Below are positions 22,413 to 47,721 of a stretch of 51,398 nucleotides of DNA, one piece after another. The stretch lies in contig JBIKUX010000019.1 of NCBI GenBank assembly GCA_044347345.1, positions 1-51,398 of the forward strand. Reading direction: 5' to 3'. Every line of letters begins with the position of its first letter. Within the stretch, counting starts at the first letter, position 1. This DNA is from Bdellovibrionota bacterium (GTDB lineage Bacteria; Bdellovibrionota_C; UBA2361; JBIKUX01). Position numbers and translations under genes: made by a program. The notes beneath the pieces are model-generated. The model ran no database searches and was not told the origin of the DNA. It was given only the letters and a program-made list of their open reading frames with translations.

Positions 22413-22608
22413 GTCCTAATTTAAAATATACTACCTTGACCCACAGCATGTCATTCCTCTTTATATATAACTTTGTTCTAATTTGTTTCTAAATCATTTT
22501 TCCATCGTTCTAAGTATCAGAGACAATGGGATACGCAACAAAGTGTTGAACTAATCGACTATGTATTAGCTGTTTAACCAAACACGATTTTTTAGGAGCA
22601 GGTCAGCA

Positions 22609-23544
22609 ATGGGTTATCATCCTCGTATTGAGACTAATGAATTGGCGGATTTTCTAACCACCAGAACCAGAAACTCACAGCTCTGGCTAATCAATAATCT
22701 AAACCTCGAAAAGGCAATTCTAGGTTATGCCGCTAAATACTCTAACCGATATAAAGTAGATTTGTATGCTCTTGCCATACAAGGTAACCACCTACACTGT
22801 ACAGCTCAATTTAACAATCTTAATCGCAGCGACTTTATGCGTGATTTTAAATCATCAGTGGCTAAGGCTGTTTCTCGCTACTGCCACTCATATCCAGGAG
22901 GCACCTTATGGGGTCGTCGCTATTCAAATGAATTTCTTCCCGGCTCCGATGATATAGAAAATTGGTTCTTCTATACTGTTCTTCAACCAGTAAACGATGG
23001 TCTAGTGGAAAAAATCTCAGATTATCCTGGATATAATTGCTTCCATGACGCGGTATGGGGAATTAAACGCACCTTTAAAATAATGAATTGGTCAGCTTAC
23101 CACAAAGCTAAGAAACTCAACCCAAAAGTAAAAAAAATAAAATTTCTCGAAAAATATATTCTAGAATATAAAAGACTTCCAGGTTACGAAAGTTTATCTC
23201 AAAAAGAATACGCTAAATTAATGATGAAAAAACTCGAAGCAAGAAGATTAGAAATTATCCATAAGCGCTTTTCTGAGGGTAAAAAGTTTCTTGGTCGAAA
23301 AGCTATTTTGCAAACGAAGCCTGGATCACTGCCAATTCAAACAAAAAATTCTACACGAAACTCTCACAGACCCAGAGTACTATGCGTTTGCCCCCAAAGG
23401 CGCGCTGAAACACTTAAATGGTATTTCTCAATTTATAACCTCTACAAACAAATATCCTTGGCTTACAGACAAGGAAACTCTCTAGTCTCGTTTCCACCCG
23501 GAACACACAAACCATACTGCAAGACTTCCACCTTATTACTCTAA
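22609..23544 (+). mobile_element. Y1 HUH nuclease/transposase, RAYT-like
   Basis: MGYHPR start, TTRT, HUH motif GNHLH, FMRDF.S..A, LWGRRY, Y..LQPV..GLV, C-terminal FPPGT. Confidence 0.8.
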
Positions 23545-33983: not shown

Positions 33984-34165
33984 TATTTCACTAAACCGAA
34001 ACTCTTAAACATTAATAACTATGCATTGTATGTCTTATTGGCTCAAAACTTAAATATTTTTAATCGTGTATAATTTATGAAATATTTAACCAAGCCATAC
34101 AGTCTAATTACTTTCTTTAGCTAAATTAATTACTTTTTTTTGCTAAAAAGTTTGTGCGCAAGAGT

Positions 34166-34192
34166 TAAGGGTTTTCTTGATTTCTCCGACAT
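34166..34192 (+). promoter_or_regulatory. Candidate sigma28-type promoter
   Basis: TAAGGGTT-N11-TCCGACAT, about 105 bp upstream of the CheY-like gene. Confidence 0.4.
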
Positions 34193-34298
34193 GACCTTTG
34201 AACAGAATTTTTACTAGTAGAGCGGCATAAAAATCCTTACACAAGTAATTAAATTACCTTTTGTAAAAATTGCAAATAGAAGTTAACTATTAATTTTA

Positions 34299-34730
34299 AT
34301 GACAAAAATTCATAAGCTTCCCTCAGTTCTTATTGTTGATGATCTGGCAACATCTCGGAGAATAATGCGAGATATGCTCGAGGAAATGGGTTTTAGTGAA
34401 ATATTTGAATCTGCTGACTGCGCAACTGCTGCGGAATACATCTATTCCGGAAAAATAGGAATAGTCATTTGTGACTATGCTATTGAAGCTAACAAGACCG
34501 GTGTAGACCTTCTCCGTCTGGCTCAAACAACTGAAAACTCAAAAAACATACCTTTTTTATTCGTTAGTGGTCGAGCGGATATATCTGCCGCTGAGGGTGC
34601 TATTAGATTAGGTGCAAGTGCTTGGATGATGAAGCCAGCTTCATATCCCGAACTGAGATGTAAGGTAAGTGAAATGATCGAAAAAGCATATTTATTAAGC
34701 AAAGAAAACGATAAGTATGATTATTTATAA
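34299..34730 (+). CDS. Single-domain CheY-like response regulator
   Basis: LIVDD, phospho-acceptor ICD, TG.DLL, FVSG, GA...KP. Confidence 0.9.
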   Translation: MTKIHKLPSVLIVDDLATSRRIMRDMLEEMGFSEIFESADCATAAEYIYSGKIGIVICDYAIEANKTGVDLLRLAQTTENSKNIPFLFVSGRADISAAEGAIRLGASAWMMKPASYPELRCKVSEMIEKAYLLSKENDKYDYL

Positions 34731-34751
34731 CTTTATTGGTGAGTAATAGTT

Positions 34752-35843
34752 TTGAGAATAACTCAAAAACTACGATTAATCTCACTCAAAAAAACAGTTA
34801 CTTACCTACTGCTACTTAGCATATTAATCATTTTTTATTTATTTACTAATCAATATCAACTGAACTTTTTCATCAGAGTTGACCTAATCTTTCTGGGGTA
34901 TTGCTTTGTAATAGTATGTTCCGTTTTAATGACGCGTTTTTATACTTTTTTTGAGATTAATAACTTCTTAAAAAATCAAAAAATATTACCTCAAGAATCC
35001 CCAAATAAAAAAAATTTGATCAATTTTTTTAACAATGATTGTGACTATCGCAAACAAATAACTCTTATTATAAGCTCGCTAATTGAAGACAATCACCAAC
35101 TTTCAAATAAAGTATCAGAGTTAAATAGTCAGATCGAGAAAGATCAGCTTAAGAATGAACAAGATTTAAAATTTCATTATATAGGCTATTTAGTTGGCAA
35201 ATGCAGGGGGATTACCAATTCGTTGGTACAACGGGAACCGAAGGTTTCAGAATTTGGAACGGCTCTAAGCTTAACCTTAAATGAGATTGTTAAGATAATA
35301 AATCAAGAGAAAACCGAGATTCCCGATCCTTGTCTCAAGGTGAGTGATATTTTTAATGAGAAAACTTGTTCAATTGAGGGACTAAACGAATCGTCGTACA
35401 ATGATTCCCCAACCTTAATCAACTCACTTAAAGATGTTTTTAATTATCAAGCCTTAGGTCTACAAGAATATAGCCCGCCTCTCTTGATTGATTATACATC
35501 TCTTTTTCAGAGATGCGGGAAAAACGAGCGAAGATTAAAAATGGTTCTGAAATTATTCTCTGATAATCTCGAGGATGTCCTAACCACAGTAGATAACTCA
35601 ATTAAACCTAGCGACAGTATTGATAAAAGTAGCAATGGTGTGAACTGTGAGGCAAATCAATCCTTACATAAATTAAAGGGATTTCTATTAGAATCAGGAT
35701 GCATATTTGAAGCCTATGTAACGGAAAATTTAGAGCTAAAATCTTCAACCATGCCTATTGAAGAAATACATAAATATTTTAATCAGATTCAGGAGCGTGT
35801 TAGGAGATTGAAGTCTTTAATTGAGCCCATGCTATCTCCTTAA
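34752..35843 (+). CDS. Membrane-anchored protein with C-terminal HPt domain
   Basis: Two N-terminal TM helices, a coiled coil, then L.R.G.....L..VL.LF...LHKLKG. Confidence 0.7.
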   Translation: MRITQKLRLISLKKTVTYLLLLSILIIFYLFTNQYQLNFFIRVDLIFLGYCFVIVCSVLMTRFYTFFEINNFLKNQKILPQESPNKKNLINFFNNDCDYRKQITLIISSLIEDNHQLSNKVSELNSQIEKDQLKNEQDLKFHYIGYLVGKCRGITNSLVQREPKVSEFGTALSLTLNEIVKIINQEKTEIPDPCLKVSDIFNEKTCSIEGLNESSYNDSPTLINSLKDVFNYQALGLQEYSPPLLIDYTSLFQRCGKNERRLKMVLKLFSDNLEDVLTTVDNSIKPSDSIDKSSNGVNCEANQSLHKLKGFLLESGCIFEAYVTENLELKSSTMPIEEIHKYFNQIQERVRRLKSLIEPMLSP

Positions 35844-38800
35844 AGTAATTTTGAGAATGCTTCTGCAATAGCTGAGGGTTTGATAGGCTTAACTAGCACC
35901 AAATCAACTCCAGACCGATAAATAAGATCATGCCGATCAGCTAAAGCTTGGGCGGTCGCAGCTATAATTGGGATACGGCGCGATGCAGAAACTTGCTTTT
36001 CAAGTGACCGGATATACAAAGATGCCACGTCTCCGTTCATGTGCGTCATACTAATATCAGTTATGATAAGGTCAAACGGGTCAAACTTCTCTCTTCCAGA
36101 TAATTGGGGGCTTATAAGTTCAATTAGTTCTTTGCCATCTGACACCTCTGTTACTATATGGCCTGCCTCTTCGAGCATATTTTTTAGAATAAAACGTGTT
36201 GTAATTGTATCATCAGCAATCAATATTTTTAATGTTCGTGAAAATGCTAGTTGACTATTACTGCCAAGCTCAATTTCGGAAGTATAAGATTCTTTTACTC
36301 CTTGTGCTGCCCAAATTATCTCCTCAGCCAGAGCTGGAACTGTAACATATCCACTTAATGAATACGGCTCTAATGATTCTCTTAGAGAAATCCGTGACGG
36401 TGTAACTATGCCAATGACCTTTACTCGACCATGACGAGCAAAGGAATCAGCTGTAGATATAACAGATGGTAATTCAAGAGCTTCTTCAGACAAAACGATC
36501 AAGCAATCAGTATTGACCGTAGTCAATCCCAACAGTAACTGAGCTGAGTCCTCTAAAGGTATAAGTTCAGTAAATAATCCAAAACGATTTAAACCTGAAA
36601 CAAGAGTTTCATTAGAAATGTTTTTTGACCCTATAAATAGTGTTCTACTAGGCCAGAAATTTTCTCTTCCGTCATTATTTAACCGTGGCACGATGTCACT
36701 TTGCTTGCTTTCATCAATATCTAATGGAAGAAAAATCGTAAACTTACTCCCCTTATCTATTGTACTGATAGCAGAAATAGTCCCACCCATACCCTCAATG
36801 AATTCTTTCACTATGGAAAGCCCCAATCCTGTACCCTGATATTGAACCTGTGAATCTTCAACCTGCTTGTACGGAGCAAATATGGTTTCTAGCTTATTTT
36901 CTGGGATCCCCAGCCCAGTATCTTCGACAGTCATACATAGCTTGATGGTATTCTTGCACTTACCGACAACTGAAAGAGTTAATTTTACGACTCCACGCTC
37001 TGTAAACTTAATGGAATTTCCGAGAAGATTAATTAGAACTTGCCTTATTCGTATAGGGTCACCAATACAATAAAGTGGCACAGTTGGATGAATATCTACC
37101 ACTAAATCTATTTTTTTATCTTCACTTGTCGTTAATTTAGTGTCGAGACGTGACGAGATAATTTTCATCGTATCTCTGATCATTTTTCGTAAATCAAAAC
37201 GTACATAATTAAATGTTAGTTCTCCTGCCTCTGCCTTAGAATAATCAAGAATTTCATTAACAGATTCAAGAAGACTTTCTGATGCAAGATTAGCCATCTG
37301 CAACAGTTCGCGCACAGATTTTGAAATTTCAGAGTGTCCCAAAATAATATTATGAATGCCAATTATTCCAGAAAGAGGAGTTCGTAGCTCGTGACTTATT
37401 TTTGCTATAAACATTGATTTTGCTTTATTAGCGACATCAGCAGCATCTTTTGCCTTAGATATATCCTCCTGTGCTCTTTGTAACGCAGCTAGCATACTGT
37501 TTATATTGGTGGCTAAACTGGCTATTTCGTCACGACCAGAACTAAAAATCTTTTGATGTAGATTCCCTGTCAGAGTTATATTTTTTGACTGTTTCCCTAT
37601 ATTATCAATTCTAACAAGCATTAAACGACTTACTCCAATCAGAGTTGTAGCTATACATACAATTCCACCGATAAAGATATACAGTGGCAATATTTTCGCT
37701 GCTAATCTGCCCTGCTCATAAATACTTCTTGGTAGAATTATAGACAACCGGAAGGCTGTATTTCCTCTAGGATCTTTTATTGGTAATGTAGCCTTTATTG
37801 TTGATTCTGTGATTGGGAGAATCGATCTAGTATTTACTAAATTGTCCCCAACCATTCTATCAAAATTCAGTGATAAATTCGTTTGTTTACTTAATTCTTG
37901 CTCAAACTGCTCATCAATAGATTTAGCAAATAGTAACCATCCTCGGGGCTCACCCAATCTTTTTGAATTCAATACTTGACTAGCTCCAACTAATACAACA
38001 GTGTCAGGAAGGTTTATAAATCCGCTAATTTCTTTACTATTTTTTGCACTTAACGGTACGCTTTTAAAGCGTTCTACAGTTCTCGTATTAACTGGGTGTA
38101 AAACTTTTTTATCCTTGTCAGTCTTGTATCCGTCAATTAGTGATACTTCTCGATTAAATAAAAGAACATGGCTAATTCCCATTTTTTCGAAAGTATCAAA
38201 GCCAAAGTTTGAAGTCTTGTATTTCGCGTCTCCTGTTAAAACAAAACTGTATGTTTCATCCCACTGAGCCCAATCTACTGTTTTCCTTAAAAGCTCATTT
38301 AATCTAGCTTGGAGGGCTCTGTATCCTCGTTCAAGATCCTCTTTTGCTTCCTTTTGTTCTATCTCTTCAAACTGCTTTAGAAATAATCGAGTAAGCGTTG
38401 TGCCAGTAAAAATGATTGTTCCAGCAAAAACTAAAGCTATACAACTGAAGGTTTTTATTTTTAAGGAAATACCAGTAGAAGAAATATTAAGGAATTTATT
38501 TGCAAAAATCCCCTTCACTGCAATCTGTTTAGCATGTTCAGAAAGAAGATTTATATGTTTGATTGCAGCTATATAAATTACAAATATGAGAAAAAAAGTT
38601 GCTACTATTCCACTTATGCCCAAAATTAAAACAGATATTGCTTGGAATTTTTTTGCAAATAATAGTACCTCTCTATTACTAGTAACCGAAAACAAATATA
38701 AAGGGTTTCCGCTGATATCCCTCAATAAGCCATATCCATAACTTAAATTTTTACTTGGAAAAGCTAGTTCTACATTGTTTTTACTCCTCTTGAGCTTGTC

Positions 38801-39448
38801 GACAATCAATTTATTACTAAGCGAATTTTTTACCAAAGAAAAAGTTGTATTTAGATTTACCCGATAAGATAAATCACTAAAAATCTGTTCACTTAACAGA
38901 GTAATTGCTACTAAAGTGCCTCGTGATGACCCTGTTCCGGAATTTGGTAGAATTGGTGAAGATGCAAATAAATACCCACGACCACTTATTTCTATAAGAC
39001 CACGCGCCTGAGAATTTTGATTAGTTGTTAACAACTGTTTTATTAATTCAATTTGTTCAGATGGTACTTCTACTTTTGAGTCACCCCTAGTACTAATACT
39101 AGTGCCGTAATAAAAATCCCCGGATGATGAAAAATATAAGAGGCTAGTATAGCCAAGCGCACTCATGGTAAGAGGATTTAGGTTTTCTTGAATATATGAC
39201 GGCGCTTGACTCTTCATAAACTGATATGAATCATCCCAATGAGCCCAGTCCACCAGTTTAATAGCATGTTGGTCTACAATGGCTTTAATACCATTTTCAA
39301 CGCGCTCGACATTTCGGATCAAAACAGATTCTTCTAACTTATTAAAAGTTTTGACTGTCTGTTGATTAAAAATAAGATATAGCCCAAGACTAAGAATGGT
39401 TACTGTAGATAATGGAACAAGCGCAGTACGAAGTAGAAGTTTCATCAA
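35840..39448 (-). CDS. Hybrid sensor histidine kinase with two CHASE4 domains, HAMP, HisKA, HATPase_c and receiver
   Basis: DWAHWDDSYQF and DWAQWDETYSF repeats, GRDEI..LA..IN.ML, SHELRTPL, NLLGNSIKFT, GTGLGL, IADD...DISM...KP. Confidence 0.92.
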   Translation of the reverse strand: MMKLLLRTALVPLSTVTILSLGLYLIFNQQTVKTFNKLEESVLIRNVERVENGIKAIVDQHAIKLVDWAHWDDSYQFMKSQAPSYIQENLNPLTMSALGYTSLLYFSSSGDFYYGTSISTRGDSKVEVPSEQIELIKQLLTTNQNSQARGLIEISGRGYLFASSPILPNSGTGSSRGTLVAITLLSEQIFSDLSYRVNLNTTFSLVKNSLSNKLIVDKLKRSKNNVELAFPSKNLSYGYGLLRDISGNPLYLFSVTSNREVLLFAKKFQAISVLILGISGIVATFFLIFVIYIAAIKHINLLSEHAKQIAVKGIFANKFLNISSTGISLKIKTFSCIALVFAGTIIFTGTTLTRLFLKQFEEIEQKEAKEDLERGYRALQARLNELLRKTVDWAQWDETYSFVLTGDAKYKTSNFGFDTFEKMGISHVLLFNREVSLIDGYKTDKDKKVLHPVNTRTVERFKSVPLSAKNSKEISGFINLPDTVVLVGASQVLNSKRLGEPRGWLLFAKSIDEQFEQELSKQTNLSLNFDRMVGDNLVNTRSILPITESTIKATLPIKDPRGNTAFRLSIILPRSIYEQGRLAAKILPLYIFIGGIVCIATTLIGVSRLMLVRIDNIGKQSKNITLTGNLHQKIFSSGRDEIASLATNINSMLAALQRAQEDISKAKDAADVANKAKSMFIAKISHELRTPLSGIIGIHNIILGHSEISKSVRELLQMANLASESLLESVNEILDYSKAEAGELTFNYVRFDLRKMIRDTMKIISSRLDTKLTTSEDKKIDLVVDIHPTVPLYCIGDPIRIRQVLINLLGNSIKFTERGVVKLTLSVVGKCKNTIKLCMTVEDTGLGIPENKLETIFAPYKQVEDSQVQYQGTGLGLSIVKEFIEGMGGTISAISTIDKGSKFTIFLPLDIDESKQSDIVPRLNNDGRENFWPSRTLFIGSKNISNETLVSGLNRFGLFTELIPLEDSAQLLLGLTTVNTDCLIVLSEEALELPSVISTADSFARHGRVKVIGIVTPSRISLRESLEPYSLSGYVTVPALAEEIIWAAQGVKESYTSEIELGSNSQLAFSRTLKILIADDTITTRFILKNMLEEAGHIVTEVSDGKELIELISPQLSGREKFDPFDLIITDISMTHMNGDVASLYIRSLEKQVSASRRIPIIAATAQALADRHDLIYRSGVDLVLVKPIKPSAIAEAFSKLL

Positions 39449-39563
39449 GTGAAACCCAAAAAACCTAGTTTTTATAAAAACTTCTCGTGTACCTTGTGAT
39501 CGGTCGTTTTTTGTTAAATCTGTACCTAAATAGTAGTAAATAATATTTAACTTTTAAGTTAAT

Positions 39564-40346
39564 ATGAAATTGGATAAAAAAACTAAGAGCGAGATTTTAT
39601 ACGGTTACAGCCAAATATACCTGGATCAATATTGGCCTGAGACCCCACAATCCGCGCTAGAATGGACTGATAACGCTGTTTTAATGCTTGCTTATCAAGA
39701 AGCTGGTTTGGAAATTATGAAGCACTTCGGAGGTAAGTCAATGCCTCTTCTCGATGTATCTACTGGGCCTGCTCTTGCTCCACTCTTAGCCCTCCTTACT
39801 TGTGTATCAGATGTGCAGTTATCGGATTATAACTTAGATAATCGCCGTTCATTACAAGAAATGGATGTAAGTTATTGGCGTAATTATGTTCCAATGCTCA
39901 CTAAAATATACGATGAGCCTTACAATCATGTTGATGAAATACTGGCATATCTTGATAGAAAAAAATCCCAAAATCCGCCTGTACATGTAGACCTTTTTAA
40001 CGACCCTATTTTTCCATCAACCATACGAAGTGATAATTTTTCCATCGTATCAATGAATTTTGTGGCTGATTCCATAGCCAGTAACTTGAAAGATTACTTA
40101 TCCTGCTTGGATAAAGTATTAAACTTAGTGCGTTCTGGTGGAGCATTTATCATGTCCGCTGTGGTTGATTCCAATGGCTGGAATTTAGGCCAAGAATTAG
40201 AACCTTCTCCAAACGTATCTGAGAAAATTATCATTGATTTCTTAACAAGTAACGGCTTTGTTATAAAGAATGTCTCACGTTCTATGAGATATTCTGGTCT
40301 TTCCTATTCGGGTGGATGGATAGTACTAGCGGCCATACGAGAATAA
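39564..40346 (+). CDS. NNMT/PNMT/TEMT-family SAM-dependent small-molecule N-methyltransferase
   Basis: YLDQYW, LLDVSTGP, LSDY...NR, YW, NLVRSGGAF align with NNMT-family YL..YY, LID.GSGP, DY...N, W, L.PGG. Confidence 0.75.
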   Translation: MKLDKKTKSEILYGYSQIYLDQYWPETPQSALEWTDNAVLMLAYQEAGLEIMKHFGGKSMPLLDVSTGPALAPLLALLTCVSDVQLSDYNLDNRRSLQEMDVSYWRNYVPMLTKIYDEPYNHVDEILAYLDRKKSQNPPVHVDLFNDPIFPSTIRSDNFSIVSMNFVADSIASNLKDYLSCLDKVLNLVRSGGAFIMSAVVDSNGWNLGQELEPSPNVSEKIIIDFLTSNGFVIKNVSRSMRYSGLSYSGGWIVLAAIRE

Positions 40347-40362
40347 AAAGCCCTAAAAAAAT

Positions 40363-40689
40363 ATGCTTGATTCACCACTTTTGCGATTTTTTATTCTTGC
40401 TGCTTGCGCAAGTCTATTTGTAATCTGTGATTCACTCGCTGCACATTGGGGTAAAAATAATTCTTTACCTGCTCTGATTACCGTTATAGTTATTGCCCCA
40501 TTTAGCTATATTCTTTTTGGTTATCTTAATCAAAAATATCCATTAGCTGTAGTTTCAGCTTGGGTTACGATTGTTCTATGTGTAACTACCGTGCTTGTAG
40601 GGTTTTTCTTTTTTAATGATACAGTTAGCTTGAGACAAGGATTAGGAATTGCTTTGGCAATTTCTGCCATGCTGCTCCTTGTAACTTAA
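40363..40689 (+). CDS. Small 4-TM SMR/DMT-superfamily transporter
   Basis: 108 aa, 4 TM segments, PLAV....W......VLVG..FF.D.VS..Q.LG; lacks the canonical TM1 Glu. Confidence 0.75.
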   Translation: MLDSPLLRFFILAACASLFVICDSLAAHWGKNNSLPALITVIVIAPFSYILFGYLNQKYPLAVVSAWVTIVLCVTTVLVGFFFFNDTVSLRQGLGIALAISAMLLLVT

Positions 40690-40773
40690 AGGGTTAATCT
40701 CAAACAACTAATAGAGCTCACATAATTACCTCAATAACTTAAACAACCTAAACAAATTCCAATATTACAGCTA

Positions 40774-41817
40774 TTACGAGCAGTAGTCCTCTAATACTCC
40801 TTTTCTACGCACGTCGAGCGTGACACAGTGGAAACCTCCTCCCATGGTACGAGCGTGACGCAACTGCAAAGGTAAAACATCAACATCTCGCTTCTCAAGT
40901 TCTCTTATAAGAGAGACTTGATTTTTATCAACTACAGCTAGACTAGGATTAATCATCATAAAATTTAATCCGATCCACTTTGAGGCATAAGAAATTGAGT
41001 TAAACCCGATATCATAAACGTCAGAAATATAAATTACATCCCAAGTCTCAAATATTTTTGGCAAATTATCCTCTGACACTCTTTCAGCACAAGCTACAAG
41101 TAATCCTGGACGAACTAGTGTAAAGGTGGTGTCAATGTGACTGCCACTGTAGACGTTGTCACACACGTGAACTCTAAATTCATCACCTAAAACACTTTGT
41201 AGCCAAGTTGCTCCATCCCTATTCCCAGTATCTGAAACAAGATACAAAATATCTCGGCCAATCCTTAGTATATTAGCCGCATCAAAAATTGGCTCTCCCT
41301 CACATATGGCTGTCTCGCCATCTAATTGCGGAACTCGGTAAATGGCGTCTAGTAATCGTGGTTTTGGAGCACTAATCCAACGAGCACCACTTCTCATATA
41401 ATCAATGAGGATTGATTTGTATGAGATAGTTTCAAACTGGCGCGCTCTCAAAGTCATTGGCGCCTCTATTATCATATTTCCACTACACACAAATAGGTCG
41501 CGTGGACAATAATTATATTGGCCATCGGAATGCCAATCTGGTGAAGAAAATGAGCGAGCATGATCAAAGATTTCAGGCCTTCTAACAATAATACCGAGAT
41601 TTTTTAACTCAGAAACAAAGATATCTAAGTCCTCATTTGTTTCATCAATGCACCGTTTTGGATAACGACCCGACGGCACCTGATAAGGCAGACTAAATTG
41701 ACGATACTCTACCGCATAAAGACCTTTATCACAGAGAGCGATTTGTGCATTATCTGCACGACCAACAATTACTTCCTCAAGAGGATCCCACTCGGTGTAA
41801 ACATTAACTTTACTCAT
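40774..41817 (-). CDS. Arginine-dependent amidinotransferase (AGAT/StrB1 family)
   Basis: EWDPLEEVIVG, NYCPRD, IEAPM..R.R..E, FDAAN (Asp), HIDTT (His), GGGFHCVTLD (Cys). Confidence 0.93.
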   Translation of the reverse strand: MSKVNVYTEWDPLEEVIVGRADNAQIALCDKGLYAVEYRQFSLPYQVPSGRYPKRCIDETNEDLDIFVSELKNLGIIVRRPEIFDHARSFSSPDWHSDGQYNYCPRDLFVCSGNMIIEAPMTLRARQFETISYKSILIDYMRSGARWISAPKPRLLDAIYRVPQLDGETAICEGEPIFDAANILRIGRDILYLVSDTGNRDGATWLQSVLGDEFRVHVCDNVYSGSHIDTTFTLVRPGLLVACAERVSEDNLPKIFETWDVIYISDVYDIGFNSISYASKWIGLNFMMINPSLAVVDKNQVSLIRELEKRDVDVLPLQLRHARTMGGGFHCVTLDVRRKGVLEDYCS

Positions 41818-41937
41818 TTTAACTAATTTATAAAAAAAGGTTCAAATGTTGAGATTAGATATATCATACTAAACATAAAATTTACGCAGATTTTAATCAA
41901 AATTAGTGAAATATAAATTTTTAAAAAAAAGTTGCTA

Positions 41938-43152
41938 ATGACATTAGCTGAAGAACAATTTTTAAATACACCTTTTTTAGCGATATCTAAGGAGATTCTC
42001 GATGAAAATATAAATCTTCTAACTAAGCACTTATCATCTGTTAAACTTTTTTATGCTGTAAAAGCTAATTCATCCCTGGCTGTACTTAATTACTTTCTCA
42101 ATCGCTCAATTTCATTTGATGTTGCTTCTGCCGGTGAAATAAATTTACTAACCAGTATTGGTGCAAAAACGTCTGATTTATTTTTATCTACACCAATTAA
42201 AACTCAAGAAACTATTTCAGCACTTTTTGAACATGAAATTCCATATGCTACAGTTGACACGGTTCATGAGGTCGAACGTATTGTACACTACTGGCGTGAA
42301 AAAAAGACAATCCGCTATCTACCATCGCTGTTTATAAGATTAGCACTAACGTCAAGTGGAGCTCAGATTGATTTAAATAAAAAATTTGGCTGTAAACTTG
42401 ATGAAGGAGTGGTAGTAGCAGAGAGAGCCTCAAGTTTAGGTTTCAAAGTTTCGGGGATATCATTTCATGTAGGTTCAAATTGTATCAACCCTTCAAGTTA
42501 TAAAACAGGAATTAATGCAGCTCTACAACTAGCGTCCCTAATTATCAGTAAAACAGGAATAAAGCCTTCGATTATAAATATAGGCGGTGGATTTTGTGAT
42601 AAACGCCACGCATTAAAGCTAGGAATATGCCTTGATGAATATTTTTCATATATTCAGAAAAGTCTGATTCCGGCGTTAGATAAAGGTTTCTCAATATATG
42701 CAGAACCAGGAAGGATTCTAGTTAGTAATGCTGGAACATTAGTTTCATCCATTATTGGAATTAGTATTCGTAATGGTGTTCGATGGGCATACCTCAACGA
42801 CGGTATTTATGGCTGTTATTCCATTAAATTATATGAAAAACAGCCTTTGTCATTTATACGAATCAAAAGAAATAGTGGCACCAATGATAACCTAAAAAGT
42901 AATCTTGTTTCTTGGACTCTAGCTGGTCCAACCTGTGATTCCTTAGACGTTGTTGCAGAAGACGCTATCTTACCCGAAAACCTTAAAGTAGGAGACCTGA
43001 TAATTTCCCCTGATATGGGAGCCTACTCAATAGCAACTGCTTGTAATTTCAATGGCTTCAAACCTCCACCATGTTATTTGATAGAAAATAATTATCTATC
43101 AAACGATATCAATCTCTTTTCTCACCCTCGCCATGAGAATTTTACAACATGA
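41938..43152 (+). CDS. Fold-type III PLP decarboxylase, ornithine/lysine decarboxylase type
   Basis: FYAVKAN (PLP Lys), FDVAS.GE, KFG, FHVGS, NIGGGF, EPGR, DG.YG, GPTCDSLD, MGAY...FNGF; about 400 aa. Confidence 0.9.
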   Translation: MTLAEEQFLNTPFLAISKEILDENINLLTKHLSSVKLFYAVKANSSLAVLNYFLNRSISFDVASAGEINLLTSIGAKTSDLFLSTPIKTQETISALFEHEIPYATVDTVHEVERIVHYWREKKTIRYLPSLFIRLALTSSGAQIDLNKKFGCKLDEGVVVAERASSLGFKVSGISFHVGSNCINPSSYKTGINAALQLASLIISKTGIKPSIINIGGGFCDKRHALKLGICLDEYFSYIQKSLIPALDKGFSIYAEPGRILVSNAGTLVSSIIGISIRNGVRWAYLNDGIYGCYSIKLYEKQPLSFIRIKRNSGTNDNLKSNLVSWTLAGPTCDSLDVVAEDAILPENLKVGDLIISPDMGAYSIATACNFNGFKPPPCYLIENNYLSNDINLFSHPRHENFTT

Positions 43153-43199
43153 CTGAAGAAAATTTCTTACGGAATAAGTTTAAACAAAGCGTCAGAATA

Positions 43200-43227
43200 T
43201 AAAAACTTCTCCTAGAATCGCCGAGGT
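43200..43227 (+). promoter_or_regulatory. Candidate sigma28-type promoter
   Basis: TAAA-N16-GCCGAGGT, about 110 bp upstream of the 43338 gene. Confidence 0.3.
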
Positions 43228-43337
43228 ATTATTACAAGAAATAAGGATAAATCCTTTTCTTGCTCAAAGTTACTGTAAAATAATGGGTGTCTCAGAGAGC
43301 AAGTTAAAGAGAACAACATAACAGGTGAGGTAGCCGT

Positions 43338-43679
43338 ATGCCATCCATCACAACTCAAGTAATATCATCAGCCGCATCTTCCTCTGGAGCTGTTAAAAAA
43401 CCAGCTAGAAACAAAGAAAAGGCTCAAGAAAAACAGGATAATAATAGAGCAGCTGAGATAGCTCAGGTTAAAGCTGAAGCTCGACGTGCTAACGCAAACC
43501 CTGAAGTTAATAAACAGCCAGTTGCAAGAGACAGAACCTCTCCAACAACCTATAGTCCGAGAACTATCGCTGAAGACCGACGAAGAGCCTCAGCTCCGAC
43601 TGAAAGAAATGAAGATTTGAGTAGCAAACCAATGCCTCAGGCAAGAGAAGTAGCGCAAAGATTAGACAAAGTCGCATAA
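43338..43679 (+). CDS. Hydrophilic, probably disordered hypothetical protein
   Basis: GAGGT RBS; Ala/Glu/Lys/Arg-rich; ends RLDKVA. Confidence 0.65.
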   Translation: MPSITTQVISSAASSSGAVKKPARNKEKAQEKQDNNRAAEIAQVKAEARRANANPEVNKQPVARDRTSPTTYSPRTIAEDRRRASAPTERNEDLSSKPMPQAREVAQRLDKVA

Positions 43680-43754
43680 TAATAAATTATTAATAGCAAC
43701 TTTTCCTAAACAAACTCGACTATGCCAGTTTCAGAATTGAGTCTGGGATAGTAA

Positions 43755-44231
43755 GTGAAAGTGATAGATAACAAAGTTGGTAACAGAAATAATAGAGATA
43801 TTAAAGATCATACGGATAGTATCATCACAGGAGAGATTTTTTCGTACTTCTTAATGACCCTTGTTGTGGCAATTTTCTGCACTGTAAAGCACTTCACTAA
43901 GAGCAAAAAAAATAAACTCTCAGATAACGAGATAGCTAGATTAATTTCATTGGAAGACTCAGAATCTAAGATAGTATTTGGACAACCTGTATCTCTTTAC
44001 GATACCGATGCAACTTTATTAGAACTTATACCTAAGGTAGGTTCCGCTACAGCAAATCGCTTAATAAAGAATAAGTTTGAAATAAGTAAGGCGCGATGCC
44101 ATTCCTATGAGGCTACAGTATATACGCTGAAACACAAAGTAAAGCTCTCTACCCCTCAAGCGAAGCTACTACCAAAATTTATTGAGCCAGATGGCTGCTC
44201 GAAGATTTTTTTTAGTTTGCCTCCACCATAG
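43755..44231 (+). CDS. Membrane-anchored protein with ComEA-like helix-hairpin-helix motif
   Basis: One TM segment, then VSL....ATLLELIPKVG.A.A.RLI. Confidence 0.5.
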   Translation: MKVIDNKVGNRNNRDIKDHTDSIITGEIFSYFLMTLVVAIFCTVKHFTKSKKNKLSDNEIARLISLEDSESKIVFGQPVSLYDTDATLLELIPKVGSATANRLIKNKFEISKARCHSYEATVYTLKHKVKLSTPQAKLLPKFIEPDGCSKIFFSLPPP

Positions 44232-47200
44232 AAAGTGACTGACGATACTTGCTCTCAAAAACGGGGGAAAAGGCATACTTGTGCCGTCCCAGATATAACT
44301 TTAACGCGTCTACGATAACCTTCTGATCATCTACAAAAGCCCTAAGAGCTAAACGAAGATTGGCTAATTCAGGATGGTTTGGATTTAAAAGTTCTAATTC
44401 AGCTATTCTCTGATCAAGTTTTGATGAAACGTTTCTTTCAAATTCCACTTCAACTTCAAAAAATTCTCCTAAATAAGGTGGTAACACCACTTTCTCCCCG
44501 TTCCATCCTTTTTTAACTACATCGATAAAAGGGACGGCATCGTAAACTTGGCTGTGATCTAAAGTAATAATATAAGCTTGATCAGGGTTTGGCCCAGATC
44601 CCCACGGTGAACGAATTTCTAAATGCTGCCTTCTTCGAGTAGTAGATACTACGGTTTTCGGTTTAAAAGCATATTCCTTTCGTTCAGGAAATATTGATTT
44701 ATAGTACTCCATTACATGACGTGCTGGTTCTGGGACTATGTCTCCAAATCGCCCACTCTGTAGAATTGGTATGTACTCAGGAAGAGGCCACGGTGGTGGT
44801 GGTGGTGGGTCAACAATTGAAAAAGGTGATGATTGTCTCCTAAATTCAAAGCGTGCCTCTTTCACAGTAGTCATTAAATTATCGTCGGCTTCTCTACCTG
44901 TTTTGCCTTGAAACTCAATTCTATATGGCCAAAAATCAGGGTTTAATGGAGATTTTATATGTCTATCGTGAGTCTTTTTATCTTTAAAACGATTTCGTAA
45001 CCTGTAAGAAACGTGATGAGTTTTATTCACATAGTCATCTGTATCAAAATAAATATCTCGGTATACTGATTCACCAACCACCGGAACTATCCTATAAGGA
45101 GTTTGAGTGTATTTCGGAGCATTCCATCTTGATGTATCTTTAACTGCCTCTACTAACGCCGCATTGAATGCTAATGCCAACGCCTCTCCATCAATCACAG
45201 AAATTTTTTCTTTATGGTCTGCACTTGTGATGCCGTACCGATATTCTCTTTCCGAACGAACAGGTGTGCCGTAAGACCGAGAATTAGCTAAGTTAATATC
45301 ATGGGTCAGTATTGGTGGTTCAATGAAAGTGGCGTTATCTTCACTGATAGATGAGTTAACGTTACTTATCGCTCGAACTACACCACCTAAGAATTTTGTA
45401 TCTTTTAACGTCGCATGCGAATCGACCAAGCCAAGCGTCGATTTAGCAAAAGTAACATCATTTAACTGAGCATCTACTCCATGCAATGCTAGGGAACCTC
45501 GGTAGTAAACATAGCCCACCTCCCCTTCACTTCCGCCTTCTATCCGCACATGACTTAGGCGCGAGGTTTGTCGCTTAAGACCAGAAATACCCAGAACACC
45601 AATGGTTTTAAACGAGCGCTTACCATCATTTGAATCCGAGTTATTTCCGCGAAAAATAATAGGCTTCTCAGGGGTTCCCTCTGCGATTATTTTTCCTCCA
45701 CGAACAATGATGCTACATCTACTGCAAATATTTACCGTAGTGCCAGCAGCTACAATAAGATCCGTTTGCTCGGGTAAAATTAAATTGGAGGAGATATTAA
45801 CTTCACCACTCCACTTAATGGGGTCTGGGATTGTACGTAAAGTTTCACTCCACCACCCAGGCAAAGTCTCTGAGGGTAAATTAGCAATGTTTTCATTTAA
45901 TTTAGCGGTATACTGAGGTAAGTCTTCACCGGTGATACCGTTTTGAGCAGTAACTGTTACTACATTTCCAATCTCACCATCCCCATCGAGCACTATTCTG
46001 TACTCATAACGAGCTGGAAGCTTTTTATTACTTTGCCAAGTATTTGATACTGTACCCCTAGAATATAAAAAATCATCCAAAGCAAATACTACATATCCAT
46101 TATCAACTTTTGCATTTAGACTAGACTTAGTTCCCAAACGCTCAAGTCTTAATTGTGTGGTTTGACTACTATTAGAAACCGGAATTTTAATACTCTTTAG
46201 CTTAATAGAAGGAGTACCAAAGTTAATTATAGATAAACTCTGGTAGCTATGAGTACCTTTATAAATTGTATGGTACTTAGCATCCCTAAGAGCTGCAATT
46301 AACTTTTCGTTACGAGTCTTTATAATTTTTAATAGGTCTACCACACCGAGATGAAATTCCTTATTTGATAAAAAATTAACTCGGGTGTGAAGAGCTGTTA
46401 ATTTAAAAGGGTCAGCCTCAACGTCATTTTTTATCTTGTTGTATTCGTCATTAATAAATTTAGATAAACTATCTGTCGATAAAACACCGCTATTAATATA
46501 TTGCCAAATCTTTTGATGTTTTTGATGGTGGAATTCTGGTACCGAAACAACCTTTTCAAATAGGGTATTTACTGGCAGATCAATTTCACCATTTTGGTCG
46601 CCCCACATATAGGCCGCTGTATCCCAAACGATAGGTTGGAGAACTCCTTTACGCGGATTTAAATACCATTTGTGATTATGAGTATCATCGACGTGGTTGG
46701 AGCCAACTATTTCAAGTAATGCTATATAGGCCAATGCAGTATCAGTATCGATAATTTCTCGAATTTTTGGTAAAAACTCCTCAATAGAACGCTTGCGATT
46801 TAAAACGGATAAAAGATGCTTGATAGGATTTTTTTCACCAAAATCAGGATCTGCAACGCCACGATCTAAATTTGGCCCATCTATAGTCCAAGCGTCTACT
46901 TGATGAAATAATGATTTACGCTTACCTGGCGAATAGATCTGTTCTGTTGTTATATCACCAATGTATATATATCCAGCATCCAATCCTCGATATGTTAAAA
47001 AAGATTGATCTACCTGTTCTAAAAAAATACGGGTTCCATCAAATTGTCGATTGAGTCGGAAATGAACTGGGTAAGCTGATGGAGAGATTAATCCGATTCG
47101 CTTTCCCATCTCATATCCAAGATAATCAGCTATACGAGACTCCGTACGAGGCAGATATAGATTAAATATCCGCCGCCCATCATAGACTTTAGCTCCCCTA

Positions 47201-47721
47201 AGCTGCACTCGCCAGGATTTTTGGGGAAAAGCCCAATGATTTATAGAGTCCCCACGATATCGTACCTTTGCTTCATAAACAGAACTACCGGAAGGAGAGG
47301 TATTAAGTTTAACCTTAGCATTTTGAAATTCTCGACCAGACTCGGGAAGCTTACTATTTAACGCGTCAATCTTTTCGCCCCTGATATAAATTTCTACTGA
47401 TGGAAGATGAGATTCATGCTTAGAAATTTCAGGAACAGTTGAAGAAAAAATAATGCCAGAAAGTAACTTTTTTCCACCTATAAGAGCCTTTTCAGGCAAT
47501 GTTTTTGCTTGTTCGGCACGTTCTCGTGGTACTAAAGACAAAAATTTTAAAGTTACTACCGCTAGCAAGCACAAGACGGACAATATAAGAATCGCTTTAC
47601 AAAAAAATCGTACTTTAATGCTCCTAGCCATGCTCTTGAGATACGAAATTTGGTATCCCGAATCGTGTGAACTAGGTAAACCTGTAGTAGAAGTAGTTAA
47701 GTCAGACGAGAATAAAGGCAT
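44212..47721 (-). CDS. CotH-kinase / beta-helix / CYTH-like multidomain membrane-anchored protein
   Basis: KVRYRGD...HW...KSWR, HN..WY.NP, PIVWD (CotH); G.I.AEGT.EKPI.F (beta-helix entry); EREYR, DIYFDT, YRLR.R, ITLD, EVEVE (CYTH/VTC). Confidence 0.75.
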   Translation of the reverse strand: MPLFSSDLTTSTTGLPSSHDSGYQISYLKSMARSIKVRFFCKAILILSVLCLLAVVTLKFLSLVPRERAEQAKTLPEKALIGGKKLLSGIIFSSTVPEISKHESHLPSVEIYIRGEKIDALNSKLPESGREFQNAKVKLNTSPSGSSVYEAKVRYRGDSINHWAFPQKSWRVQLRGAKVYDGRRIFNLYLPRTESRIADYLGYEMGKRIGLISPSAYPVHFRLNRQFDGTRIFLEQVDQSFLTYRGLDAGYIYIGDITTEQIYSPGKRKSLFHQVDAWTIDGPNLDRGVADPDFGEKNPIKHLLSVLNRKRSIEEFLPKIREIIDTDTALAYIALLEIVGSNHVDDTHNHKWYLNPRKGVLQPIVWDTAAYMWGDQNGEIDLPVNTLFEKVVSVPEFHHQKHQKIWQYINSGVLSTDSLSKFINDEYNKIKNDVEADPFKLTALHTRVNFLSNKEFHLGVVDLLKIIKTRNEKLIAALRDAKYHTIYKGTHSYQSLSIINFGTPSIKLKSIKIPVSNSSQTTQLRLERLGTKSSLNAKVDNGYVVFALDDFLYSRGTVSNTWQSNKKLPARYEYRIVLDGDGEIGNVVTVTAQNGITGEDLPQYTAKLNENIANLPSETLPGWWSETLRTIPDPIKWSGEVNISSNLILPEQTDLIVAAGTTVNICSRCSIIVRGGKIIAEGTPEKPIIFRGNNSDSNDGKRSFKTIGVLGISGLKRQTSRLSHVRIEGGSEGEVGYVYYRGSLALHGVDAQLNDVTFAKSTLGLVDSHATLKDTKFLGGVVRAISNVNSSISEDNATFIEPPILTHDINLANSRSYGTPVRSEREYRYGITSADHKEKISVIDGEALALAFNAALVEAVKDTSRWNAPKYTQTPYRIVPVVGESVYRDIYFDTDDYVNKTHHVSYRLRNRFKDKKTHDRHIKSPLNPDFWPYRIEFQGKTGREADDNLMTTVKEARFEFRRQSSPFSIVDPPPPPPWPLPEYIPILQSGRFGDIVPEPARHVMEYYKSIFPERKEYAFKPKTVVSTTRRRQHLEIRSPWGSGPNPDQAYIITLDHSQVYDAVPFIDVVKKGWNGEKVVLPPYLGEFFEVEVEFERNVSSKLDQRIAELELLNPNHPELANLRLALRAFVDDQKVIVDALKLYLGRHKYAFSPVFESKYRQSLSMVEAN

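Follow-up and report, generated by a model that had tools for sequence, protein, structure and literature searches.

Four contiguous genes, encoding a methyltransferase (MT1), a small membrane protein, an amidinotransferase and a decarboxylase, were analyzed together with their surroundings in the window, i.e., the whole 51,398-nucleotide stretch of DNA, from a freshwater Bdellovibrionota bacterium, presented above. The features discussed below are the following:

34299-34730, plus strand: single-domain CheY-like receiver protein, 143 aa (PF00072 match)
35840-39448, minus strand: hybrid sensor histidine kinase of 1202 aa (domains: two periplasmic CHASE4, HAMP, HisKA, HATPase, REC)
39449-39563: 115-bp spacer separating the divergently transcribed kinase and MT1 genes
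39564-40346, plus strand: MT1 methyltransferase, 260 aa
40363-40689, plus strand: small membrane protein (SMR/EamA-like), presumed exporter, 108 aa
40774-41817, minus strand: StrB1-like L-arginine:amine amidinotransferase, 347 aa
41818-41931: 114-bp spacer (120 bp to the ATG) separating the divergent genes for the amidinotransferase and the decarboxylase
41932-43152, plus strand: fold-III (ODC/LDC-type) PLP-dependent decarboxylase; 406 aa with the TTG start, 404 aa with the ATG start at 41938

The small-protein gene starts 16 bp past MT1 on the same strand. The amidinotransferase gene lies on the minus strand, so that it converges with the small-protein gene and diverges from that of the decarboxylase, and the locus therefore comprises three or more transcription units. 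The kinase gene and MT1 are also divergently transcribed. The gaps across the four genes were 16, 84 and 114 bp, the last becoming 120 bp with the ATG start of the decarboxylase, whose database copy (P0142) has 404 aa. These values reproduced the coordinates and gaps (16, 84 and 120 bp) of the initial annotation, which had not included the strand switch; with the amidinotransferase gene on the opposite strand, the four genes do not form a single operon. As stated there, the window ORFs scanned (80-90 aa or more) included no gene of the NRPS, PKS or aminoglycoside type. The 115-bp kinase/MT1 spacer had no Rfam match and kept no motif with G030, a genome from another family of the same order, and no sequence motif was conserved in the amidinotransferase/decarboxylase region. 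Thus, comparison of intergenic regions and the Rfam scan revealed no shared operator or riboswitch for the cassette, and no guanidine riboswitch at the locus.

Based on profile matches, MT1 is classed as a SAM-dependent methyltransferase of the NNMT/PNMT/TEMT family, as originally proposed (PF01234, 57.2 bits; cut-off 25), and belongs to a very rare subfamily. Its nearest PDB chains were PNMT, NNMT and INMT (E from 4.5e-4 upward), and it contains motif I (LLDVSTGP, residues 62-69) as well as D88. The best NCBIfam matches were SCO2525_fam (56.2 bits, cut-off 240) and GntF (19.7 bits, cut-off 60), which agrees with the earlier mention of GntF as a bacterial NNMT-family enzyme and rules out MT1 as a member of the GntF family itself. 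Only 21 relatives of the subfamily were present among 5.8 billion proteins, and a full scan of 1.84 billion yielded 11 cluster representatives at E<=1e-30. The subfamily alignment had 45 invariant columns, many of them aromatic or acidic. To our knowledge, all characterized PF01234 members are small-molecule methyltransferases.

The 108-aa small protein has four hydrophobic helices and is presumed, from its sequence, to be an SMR/EamA-like exporter of the DMT superfamily. Its nearest Atlas clusters bear SMR or EamA domains, and its size, its four helices and an acidic residue in helix 1 (D23) resemble SMR exporters (EmrE/Gdx/MdtIJ) and small DMT proteins of the ArnE/ArnF type; another acidic residue lies in an FFND motif ahead of helix 4. 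However, the SMR, EamA and ArnF profiles matched weakly, with scores under the cut-off for both PF00893 (20.4 against 23.7 bits) and EamA (19.8 against 28.2 bits), so that the previous description as an SMR/DMT transporter held for the general likeness and not for formal family membership. In contrast with SMR proteins, Asp occupies the position of the essential Glu, and this helix-1 acidic residue is not conserved among related small proteins, which have Asn or Lys there.

No Pfam family reached its cut-off for the amidinotransferase. Its closest solved structure was StrB1 (PDB 1bwd), which has the same length and with which residues 2-345 aligned (E 9.8e-117); matches to AGAT (1e-66), SxtG (1.6e-63) and HsvA (PDB 5wpi, 5e-61) were also found. 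D107, D179, H227, D229, H330 and C331 are conserved, the catalytic C331, H227 and D229 being identical to those of StrB1, and the full-length alignment thus bore out the intact Asp/His/Cys residues noted before. In the alignment, AGAT has additional segments that are missing from the window enzyme. The active site of StrB1 is open, and its acceptor is an aminocyclitol phosphate; unlike in the StrB1 setting, no aminocyclitol genes are near the window enzyme. In the phylogenetic tree, it belonged to a 15-row clade (support 99), in which 11 rows (the window and metagenome contig L005 counted) were linked to an MT1 and/or decarboxylase homologue. The linked amidinotransferases grouped into three clades, and a separate clade of 74 rows comprised cyanobacteria, Acidobacteria and Planctomycetes. 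StrB1-like enzymes with at least 76% identity were found in only 2 of the 124 genomes of the phylum. Relatives bear the database name 'inosamine-phosphate amidinotransferase 1', an annotation shared with cyanobacterial McyK, which the available part of one source cites as a homoarginine synthase (PMC12283262); the likeness is one of annotation, and the window locus differs in having no NRPS or microcystin context.

The decarboxylase matched PF02784 (146 bits) and PF00278 (68 bits). Its best solved relatives were Lys/Orn decarboxylases (2plj, 5.8e-53; 5gjm, 1e-50), whereas ODCs and the chlorella-virus ADC scored about 1e-40. K44, H179, G218-220, E258, R261, C335-D336 and Y365 were invariant in a 15-sequence alignment, consistent with the initial description of a divergent fold-III enzyme with PLP Lys and CD motif. 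The other fold-III enzymes of the same genome are lysA-like and nspC-like. This genome also has SpeA (723.8 bits, above cut-off), two ureohydrolases and Sacchrp_dh_C proteins, and with these and the nspC-like gene present, the cassette decarboxylase should be dispensable for housekeeping.

The four genes are a unit and not a chance neighborhood, since their order and orientation recur in G030 and on L005, the divergent amidinotransferase/decarboxylase arrangement included. Identities for MT1, the small protein, the amidinotransferase and the decarboxylase were 60%, 69%, 76% and 46% between the window and G030, and 83%, 94%, 87% and 82% between the window and L005. MT1 was adjacent in all three cassettes seen and present in only 2 of the 91 genomes of the order. 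Beyond the phylum, a shared contig was judged indirectly from identical longest-contig sizes. By this measure, 10 of the 21 MT1 matches shared a contig with an amidinotransferase homologue, as did 11 of the 42 decarboxylase matches of ranks 2-43, although one of these 11 (1602 nt) is physically impossible and certainly due to chance; the internal control (ranks 44-120) gave 1 in 77. The closest database relatives of the decarboxylase (35-46% identity) were on such shared contigs, and four contigs had homologues of MT1, amidinotransferase and decarboxylase together. In a Fimbriimonadaceae MAG, the amidinotransferase and decarboxylase homologues have locus tags six apart.

The double-CHASE4 hybrid histidine kinase, absent from the initial annotation, belongs to the conserved block. 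It was the only flank gene common to the window and G030 (37% identity over 1205 aa, same position and orientation), and its sensor half scored 440 bits in G030 and at most 280 bits elsewhere in the order. Kinases of the window, G030 and G005 formed a clade with support of 100. G005 has no cassette, and its kinase, methyltransferase and small protein are close to the second such pair of G030 (MT2 and small protein 2). In related genomes, the double-CHASE4 kinase has GntF-like methyltransferases and small DMT proteins as its partners. Of the 124 genomes from the phylum, 15 had PF01234 genes, against none of the 14 control genomes. In 10 of these 15, no more than 5 kb separates such a gene from a CHASE4-type kinase, and in two it lies directly after a HAMP adenylate/guanylate-cyclase membrane receptor, i.e., 12 genomes have a membrane sensor, with one of two different output domains, beside an NNMT-family gene. 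The remaining three have no adjoining sensor: G072 (contig end), G009 (biosynthetic operon) and G011 (weak match). The methyltransferases almost always come with a small transporter-like protein, and beside sensor-linked ones, some homologues of the window small protein reached the EamA cut-off (L027, 35.9; L026, 32.3; L030, 28.9 bits). The GntF cut-off was exceeded by the second methyltransferase of G030 and five other sensor-linked methyltransferases. Most of these loci contain neither an amidinotransferase nor a decarboxylase.

The cassette is an insertion in a double-CHASE4 kinase locus, together with which it is inherited. Because of this inheritance, and of the pairing of the kinase with methyltransferases in relatives, we infer that methylated-amine production and the periplasmic sensor are functionally coupled. 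Since MT1 and the kinase-operon methyltransferases fall into deeply separate clades of the tree, the kinase link of MT1 itself is drawn from two genomes, the window's and G030. The 143-aa CheY-like protein is a possible phosphorelay partner of the kinase, although the linkage is weak: receiver proteins 33-34% identical to it adjoin homologous kinases in L026, L029 and L030, and a search with it detected none beside the G030 kinase.

Taken together, the four genes probably form a self-contained, rare and conserved cassette that makes and exports a small methylated guanidino-amine. In our preferred reading, to which we give roughly an even chance, Arg, Lys (or Orn) and SAM would be converted into an exported N-methylated guanidino-alkylamine functionally tied to the kinase; the chemistry of all steps, the product and the step order are deduced from enzyme families. 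First, the StrB1-like amidinotransferase would shift the amidino group of L-arginine to a primary amine, freeing ornithine. Second, the Lys/Orn-decarboxylase-like enzyme would strip the alpha-carboxyl from the amino acid once this is amidinated (Lys to homoarginine to homoagmatine); alternatively, Lys or Orn might be decarboxylated ahead of amidination. Third, MT1 would use SAM to N-methylate the guanidino-alkylamine, most likely at the free amino end by analogy with PNMT, INMT and GntF. Finally, the four-helix DMT-type protein would move the cation across the inner membrane. A C5 (homoagmatine-type) product is favored, since plain agmatine would be redundant in a genome that encodes SpeA.

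A close precedent is OroA/OroE of the sponge oroidin pathway, an amidinotransferase and a group IV PLP decarboxylase that, in the available part of the report, convert Lys through homoarginine to homoagmatine (PMC12833800) and so yield an aminoalkylguanidine from Lys and Arg, as proposed here. The two systems are alike in enzyme class, but OroA/OroE belong to an animal gene bundle whose product enters an acylated alkaloid, and the N-methyltransferase, small transporter and sensor kinase of the window do not appear in that account. For the methylation, GntF of guanitoxin biosynthesis (NCBIfam NF041360) is in the same Pfam family as MT1 and, according to the text available, N-methylates the amino group of a guanidino-amine (PMC10673588); MT1 differs in its sub-threshold score and separate deep clade, and the other guanitoxin genes are absent here. 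A creatine-like route, suggested earlier as an alternative, was not supported, as there is no GAMT-like gene and the decarboxylase has no role in such a route. The literature searched yielded no description of a comparable four-gene system, in line with the initial annotation.

That annotation favored the opposite order, in which ODC activity makes putrescine from the freed ornithine, followed by one or two amidinations (to agmatine or arcaine) and methylation, so that Arg and SAM alone would suffice. The decarboxylase does retain an ODC-type C-D motif and the NDG-motif Asp, its solved relatives accept Orn as well as Lys, and the absence of the AGAT stretches and the open active site of StrB1 fit this reading. 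Amidinotransferases that accept polyamines are known: HsvA amidinates spermidine in the accessible part of its description (PMC6187163), and the hsv (phevamine) operon is likewise a compact bacterial operon for a small cation built around a polyamine amidinotransferase, although, as described there, it has ATP-grasp ligases and no decarboxylase, methyltransferase or transporter. However, net mono-amidination by this order equals arginine decarboxylation, already covered by SpeA, and arcaine has no free amine for N-methylation of the PNMT/GntF type. Moreover, the sole characterized pair of an amidinotransferase and a fold-III decarboxylase that we found in the partial sources, OroA/OroE, begins with Lys and amidinates first (PMC12833800). 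This order therefore appears unlikely.

A similarly low probability is given to the product being an exported antimetabolite, allelochemical or envelope cation instead of a signal, with the kinase merely regulating it or being unrelated. Aminoalkylguanidines affect the polyamine metabolism of other bacteria, noragmatine inhibiting growth of B. subtilis and homoagmatine being imported and converted (PMC5519356, available part), and amidino-polyamines such as phevamine act on other organisms (PMC6187163, available part). In addition, the cassette occurs on contigs beyond those compared for the kinase. On the other hand, regulation of a toxin alone poorly explains the sensors with two output domains beside NNMT-family genes in 12 of 15 genomes, most of these methyltransferase loci having no amidinotransferase or decarboxylase.

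The latter fact would suit a reading in which MT1 acts on a protein, such as the receptor, or serves to detoxify an amine that has been imported, while the (homo)agmatine made by the amidinotransferase and decarboxylase has some other use. Animal NNMT and INMT are indeed detoxifying enzymes. Nevertheless, the contigs that MT1 homologues share with amidinotransferase homologues, the adjacency in all three cassettes, the near-constant small transporter-like neighbor and the small-molecule substrates of characterized PF01234 members make this very improbable. Least credible of all is a chance housekeeping neighborhood or a true inosamine-phosphate amidinotransferase of an aminocyclitol pathway, which the end-to-end StrB1 alignment and the database names of relatives would suggest, given that order and orientation are kept across families, SpeA gives the genome a route of its own, a search of this 95.8% complete genome found no inositol-1-phosphate synthase, and actinomycete StrB1-like genes lie amid aminotransferase, dehydrogenase and phosphotransferase genes, none of which is in the window.

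With regard to the preferred reading of an exported, kinase-linked N-methylated guanidino-alkylamine, the product may be a signal, given the adjacent sensor kinase. CqsA/CqsS, LuxM/LuxN and LqsA/LqsS are gene pairs of an autoinducer synthase and a hybrid-kinase receptor with a phosphorelay. The window locus resembles them in the recurrent placement of a small-molecule enzyme gene beside a membrane hybrid kinase, and differs in enzyme class, in the double periplasmic CHASE4 sensor and in the signal, which would be a polar cation with its own exporter. If this reading is true, a methylated guanidino-amine would possibly act as a signal coupled to a periplasmic CHASE4 sensor.

A cassette of four genes, whose enzymes retain their catalytic residues, was found to be conserved as a unit and linked to the gene of a sensor kinase. 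The assembly in which it lies comprises 2.53 Mb in 68 contigs (95.8% complete), and the window is the entire contig C11. The four open reading frames lie where the initial annotation had placed them, with intergenic gaps of 16, 84 and 114 or 120 bp (the last depending on the decarboxylase start); that annotation omitted that the amidinotransferase is encoded on the minus strand, and it also omitted the kinase beside the cassette. The genes are as follows.

35840-39448, minus strand: hybrid histidine kinase, divergent from MT1, 1202 aa, with two CHASE4 domains, HAMP, HisKA, HATPase and REC
39564-40346, plus strand: MT1, NNMT/PNMT/TEMT-type methyltransferase, 260 aa
40363-40689, plus strand: small protein, 108 aa
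40774-41817, minus strand: amidinotransferase, 347 aa
41932-43152, plus strand: decarboxylase, 406 aa if translated from TTG and 404 aa if from the ATG at 41938, the start used by its database copy P0142

Because the amidinotransferase is on the minus strand, with MT1/small protein and the decarboxylase on the plus strand, there must be at least three transcription units. The other genes of C11 are ordinary chromosomal ones (PGK, LptD, AccD, CoaE, YchF and sugar-nucleotide enzymes), and no NRPS, PKS or aminoglycoside gene was found on the 51,398-base contig, the initial annotation having noted none nearby. Elsewhere on it, residues 153-455 of a 1169-aa protein (44212-47721, minus strand) form a CotH kinase domain, and its long C-terminal part matches no family. 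At 21075-23544, the gene of a 311-aa IS200-like Y1 transposase-domain protein adjoins that of a 445-aa protein, which matches a DNA methylase marginally.

First, we analyzed the conservation of the four genes. In G030, a genome from a different family of the same order, they occur in identical order and orientation, with identities of 60, 69, 76 and 46%. A 2.76-kb metagenome contig (L005) also keeps order and orientation, with identities of 83, 94 and 87% and a decarboxylase 82% identical over its first 100 residues. The sensor kinase is the only other gene shared by the flanks of the window and G030. Beyond these loci, co-occurrence was judged by a proxy, the identical size of the longest contig given with each database match. 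By this measure, 10 of the 21 MT1 matches share a size with one of the 120 listed amidinotransferase matches, as do 11 of the 42 best decarboxylase matches, compared with only one of the next 77 decarboxylase matches, which served as a control. Four sizes were common to MT1, amidinotransferase and decarboxylase matches. One of the 11 decarboxylase coincidences, at 1602 nt, was attributed to chance, since such a contig is too short for both genes. In a Fimbriimonadaceae MAG, the locus tags of decarboxylase and amidinotransferase are six apart. The co-occurrence check proposed in the initial annotation thus found the cassette itself in G030 and L005 and size-matched enzyme homologues elsewhere, and its view of the four genes as one unit agrees with their kept arrangement and with the insertion discussed below. 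The cassette stretch was also present at 99% identity or more in two lake/freshwater metagenome runs (X9 and X10) from different studies, neither flagged as a possible source, and the organism is thus a recurrent freshwater bacterium.

Second, each enzyme was examined for family and active-site residues. PF01234 matched MT1 at 57.2 bits (cut-off 25), aligning residues 19-244 with profile positions 21-245 of 261, and a whole-genome scan likewise placed MT1 above this cut-off. LLDVSTGP (62-69), which is motif I of class I SAM binding, and D88, the acidic residue that follows strand 2, align with the PNMT motif, and an alignment of 21 family sequences shows both to be invariant or almost invariant. 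The nearest solved structures were PNMT, NNMT and INMT, at weak E-values. By family, MT1 is a predicted small-molecule N- (or S-) methyltransferase, and we infer that the many aromatic and acidic residues invariant in the same alignment would suit a cationic substrate. Because it scored below both cut-offs, MT1 belongs neither to the GntF family (equivalog NF041360; 19.7 bits, cut-off 60) nor to SCO2525_fam (NF040568; 56.2 bits, cut-off 240). It is also very rare: 21 relatives were present in an index of 5.8 billion proteins, and HMMER against 1.84 billion cluster representatives yielded 11 at E<=1e-30, 20 at <=1e-10 and 152 at <=1e-3. Only two of the 91 genomes of the order carry it, and no relative was found in the plasmid collection. 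On two metagenome contigs (L008 and L009), a 30% identical MT1 relative shares its operon with SpeD-like (AdoMet_dc), LPG_synthase_C-like and unknown 283-aa proteins, and a histidine kinase gene comes next.

The amidinotransferase reached no Pfam cut-off, but StrB1 (1bwd) aligned with residues 2-345 at E 9.8e-117, and AGAT, SxtG and HsvA aligned at 1e-61 to 1e-66. D107, D179, H227, D229, H330 and C331 are conserved; C331, H227 and D229, the catalytic Cys-His-Asp triad, are identical in the StrB1 and AGAT alignments. The full-length alignment and these residues bear out the earlier description of an amidinotransferase with intact Asp, His and Cys. StrB1-like enzymes occur in two of the 124 genomes of the phylum, and three more genomes have an AGAT-like enzyme at 36-39% identity. 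In a FastTree phylogeny of 125 sequences (omitting P0023, a fragment of the window's own protein, and rooted on two long-branched AGAT-like sequences), the window enzyme fell in a 15-row clade with support of 99. Eleven of these rows are linked to the other cassette enzymes, nine by shared contig size and two (the window and P0022, the L005 copy) by direct observation. Two neighbouring clades, of 3 and 26 rows, contain further linked rows, and a 74-row clade with cyanobacterial, acidobacterial and planctomycete enzymes held only two short-contig coincidences. All matches in the plasmid collection were below 51% identity and in other contexts. PMC2242806, on cyanobacterial arginine catabolism, concerns an unrelated 705-aa enzyme.

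An identity as StrB1 proper, acting on inosamine phosphate, is unlikely. The inositol-phosphate synthase, inosose aminotransferase and kinase genes of that aminocyclitol context were not found in the window, and inositol-1-phosphate synthase (PF01658) was not found in the 95.8% complete genome. The aminotransferase, dehydrogenase and phosphotransferase genes that neighbour actinomycete StrB1-like genes are all missing at this locus as well, and for both reasons an aminocyclitol acceptor is improbable. A second amidinotransferase/CHASE4-kinase neighbourhood exists in the order (L032, G016:C70, 1026-6992), where an AGAT-like enzyme, 36% identical to that of the window, adjoins a single-CHASE4 hybrid kinase, and the pair is flanked by two proteins without family match. 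Searches of Pfam, NCBIfam and PDB gave no useful match for the unknown proteins of L032, L006 and L008 or for a 422-aa protein of G030.

The decarboxylase matched PF02784 (146.1 bits) and PF00278 (68 bits), both over the cut-offs. K44, G218-220, E258, R261, C335 and D336 are invariant in its alignment, and H179 and Y365 are also kept; the fold-III assignment of the initial annotation, with PLP lysine (K44) and CD motif (C335-D336), is therefore sound. Among solved structures it is closest to 2plj and 5gjm, decarboxylases that accept both Lys and Orn. Of 11 relatives linked to an amidinotransferase, 3 have Glu in place of the Asp in the NDG motif. Neither feature decides among Orn, Lys, Arg and homoarginine as substrate. 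The genome has its own polyamine route, with SpeA (723.8 bits, above cut-off), two ureohydrolases, two Sacchrp_dh_C proteins and an nspC-like decarboxylase, and thus the cassette decarboxylase is not needed for putrescine. The only further fold-III enzyme of the genome is lysA-like.

The small protein has four hydrophobic segments and scored 20.4 bits with the SMR profile PF00893 (cut-off 23.7) and 19.8 bits with EamA (cut-off 28.2). Homologues at L027, L026 and L030 reached 35.9, 32.3 and 28.9 bits with EamA, and its Atlas neighbours are SMR/EamA clusters. A motif, FFND or LGE (acidic G/N-E/D before the last helix), is common to the small protein and its homologues. SMR proteins are marked by a conserved membrane-embedded Glu in helix 1 (Glu14 of EmrE). 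Helix 1 of the small protein holds Asp23, with a Lys eight residues further; by the EmrE spacing, Asp23 would correspond to Glu14, and related small proteins have Asp, Asn or Lys here. We call it a putative half-size DMT-superfamily protein; the earlier SMR/DMT assignment holds in the sense of an SMR/EamA-like protein that scores below both cut-offs.

Third, the relationship between the cassette and the sensor kinase was analyzed. The G030 kinase, with matching place and orientation, is the closest relative of the window kinase in the order (37% identity over 1205 aa); the sensor half of the window kinase scored 440 bits in G030 and 280 bits or less in all others. Five of the six other full-length relatives (in G070, G021, G043, G019 and G069) have an NNMT-family methyltransferase immediately upstream in one operon, and most of these operons also carry a 111-138-aa EamA-like protein beside the methyltransferase. 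A profile of the kinase-linked methyltransferases found matches in 10 genomes of the order. In nine of these, a CHASE4-type kinase is encoded no more than 5 kb away on that contig; the remaining gene, that of G072, is at a contig end. GntF is the best-matching model for these sensor-linked methyltransferases, six of the nine scanned being above its cut-off of 60: MT2 of G030, the second methyltransferase beside its cassette, at 75.8 bits and five others at 78-96 bits. They form a clade deeply split from MT1.

The module of GntF-like methyltransferase, small EamA-like four-helix protein and CHASE4 hybrid histidine kinase recurs at loci L026, L027, L028, L030, L031, L035, L036 and L037 (genomes G070, G021, G043, G019, G069, G001, G005 and G051, respectively), and G001 has two methyltransferases and three small proteins within 4.4 kb. 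In two of the methyltransferases (L026:10290-11144 in G070 and L030:6523-7413 in G019), EISGEGG replaces the L-E-x-G-C-G-P SAM motif of the others, and these enzymes may bind SAM differently or be inactive.

Searching with PF01234 itself, independent of the kinase, revealed members in 15 of the 124 phylum genomes, four of them newly found, and in none of 14 control genomes. In 12 of the 15, the gene is beside a membrane sensor. At L038 (G101:C2) and L039 (G119:C99, the contig examined among three PF01234 matches in that genome), both from other orders, the gene immediately after that of a HAMP adenylate/guanylate-cyclase membrane receptor encodes an NNMT-family methyltransferase (147-148 bits), with more HAMP and cNMP-binding proteins encoded upstream. 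Comparison of CHASE4 domain 2 of the kinases with the N-terminal sensor of these cyclases gave no support for homology (hhalign probability of 0.4%). G011 has a marginal PF01234 match, and the weak member in G009 belongs to an operon that also encodes PLP enzymes and a further fold-III decarboxylase. This operon (L040, G009:C48, approximately 3169-10797) encodes a Cys/Met-metabolism PLP enzyme, a 501-aa fold-III decarboxylase, a PALP-rhodanese protein, the weak NNMT-like methyltransferase, a class-V aminotransferase and a DAO oxidase, and represents a further putative compact pathway for an amine.

The kinases of the window, G030 and G005 form one clade (support of 100). G005 has the kinase, a methyltransferase 53% identical to MT2 of G030 and a small protein 54% identical to the adjacent small protein 2, and no MT1, amidinotransferase or decarboxylase was found at its locus. 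In G030, the cassette sits exactly between the kinase and the MT2/small-protein-2 pair; in the window, the cassette is present and the second pair absent. The simplest reading is that the four-gene cassette was inserted into a pre-existing kinase/methyltransferase/small-protein locus, and the four-gene unit is therefore tied to the sensor. The lower G+C content of cassette and kinase (36-37% vs 40.2% for the genome) is a weak hint in the same direction. PMC4822843 places CHASE4 among the extracellular sensors of the Cache clan, and PMC12625894 reports a CHASE4 domain that binds extracellular ATP; a periplasmic small-molecule ligand is thus plausible.

No riboswitch or other RNA was found in 39300-44300 at E<=1 or window-wide at gathering scores, promoter and terminator counts were no higher than in shuffled sequence, and a search for a shared operator, comparing the region between kinase and MT1 and that between amidinotransferase and decarboxylase among the window, L005 and G030, revealed no convincing conserved motif. 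In two metatranscriptome runs of one study, contigs of 213-328 nt (depth 3-5) lie on all four cassette genes and the kinase; none spans two genes and DNA carry-over is possible, so we make no claim of expression from them, and gaps in the RNA-run coverage carry no weight. Likewise in two metatranscriptome runs of one study, a contig of ~1.0-1.08 kb covers 43329-44413 at depths of 93 and 79, compared with 3-10 for other RNA-run contigs in 34000-45000 and a flat 3-7 in two DNA runs. Two open reading frames lie within this stretch.

43338-43679, plus strand: would encode a low-complexity protein of 113 aa that is highly charged; the ribosome-binding site is good
43755-44231, plus strand: would encode a 158-aa protein

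Neither had a useful Pfam, NCBIfam or PDB match, the stretch had no Rfam match, and no conserved counterpart was found beside the G030 cassette. Since contig depth is a poor measure, an abundant transcript here is a lead only.

For the chemistry of the cassette, including its steps, product and export, we infer a route in which the amidinotransferase would take the amidino group from Arg and release Orn. The favoured order is Lys to homoarginine to homoagmatine, because of two precedents. In PMC12833800, OroA converts Lys to homoarginine and OroE decarboxylates homoarginine, not Orn or Arg and hardly Lys; this is the only characterised pairing of amidinotransferase and decarboxylase that we found. 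The cyanobacterial McyK, which shares the label 'inosamine-phosphate amidinotransferase' with relatives of the window enzyme, is cited as a homoarginine synthase in PMC12283262. MT1 would then most likely N-methylate the free amino end of the guanidino-alkylamine, since PF01234 enzymes methylate amines and GntF modifies a guanidine-bearing amine at its amino group (PMC10673588). The small DMT protein would be the obvious exporter of such a polar dication. The initial annotation had the diamine formed first, an order that departs from the OroA/OroE precedent and would end at the same product. A variant in which the released Orn feeds the decarboxylase is kept as a rival; a route ending in agmatine would duplicate SpeA, which the genome already has. 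A creatine-like route was rejected, as no GAMT-type gene was found and the decarboxylase would have no place in it.

The adjacency of enzyme gene and membrane receptor in 12 of the 15 PF01234-bearing genomes resembles that of signal synthase/receptor (quorum-sensing-like) systems. A tentative reading, which we consider rather improbable, is that the locus belongs to an undescribed class of cell-to-cell or self-sensing systems, consisting of an NNMT-family synthase, a half-size DMT exporter of a polar cationic amine and a periplasmic-sensor receptor. The receptor would be the double-CHASE4 hybrid kinase in the window and the HAMP cyclase elsewhere, and the inserted amidinotransferase/decarboxylase/MT1 cassette would give the window organism and G030 a private signal, an N-methylated guanidino-alkylamine.

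A literature search, conducted mostly without subscription journals and supplements so that absence is unproven, revealed no described system of such composition, in line with the initial annotation, which knew of none, and no mention of sensor kinases being paired with methyltransferases of the NNMT type. Precedents exist for every enzyme family and for every single step, and what is new is the combination, the rare branch to which MT1 belongs and the linkage to a sensor. If the proposed reading is true, it would reveal for the first time a compact route by which bacteria make an N-methylated aminoalkylguanidine, built from families otherwise known in toxin, antibiotic and animal alkaloid pathways, and a bacterial branch of the NNMT family that is very rare would gain a function. 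The reading would also point to a ligand class for CHASE4 sensors, for which extracellular ATP is the one ligand found in print (PMC12625894). Finally, the pairing of NNMT-type methyltransferase and membrane sensor could open up a new type of amine-based signalling in freshwater bacteria.
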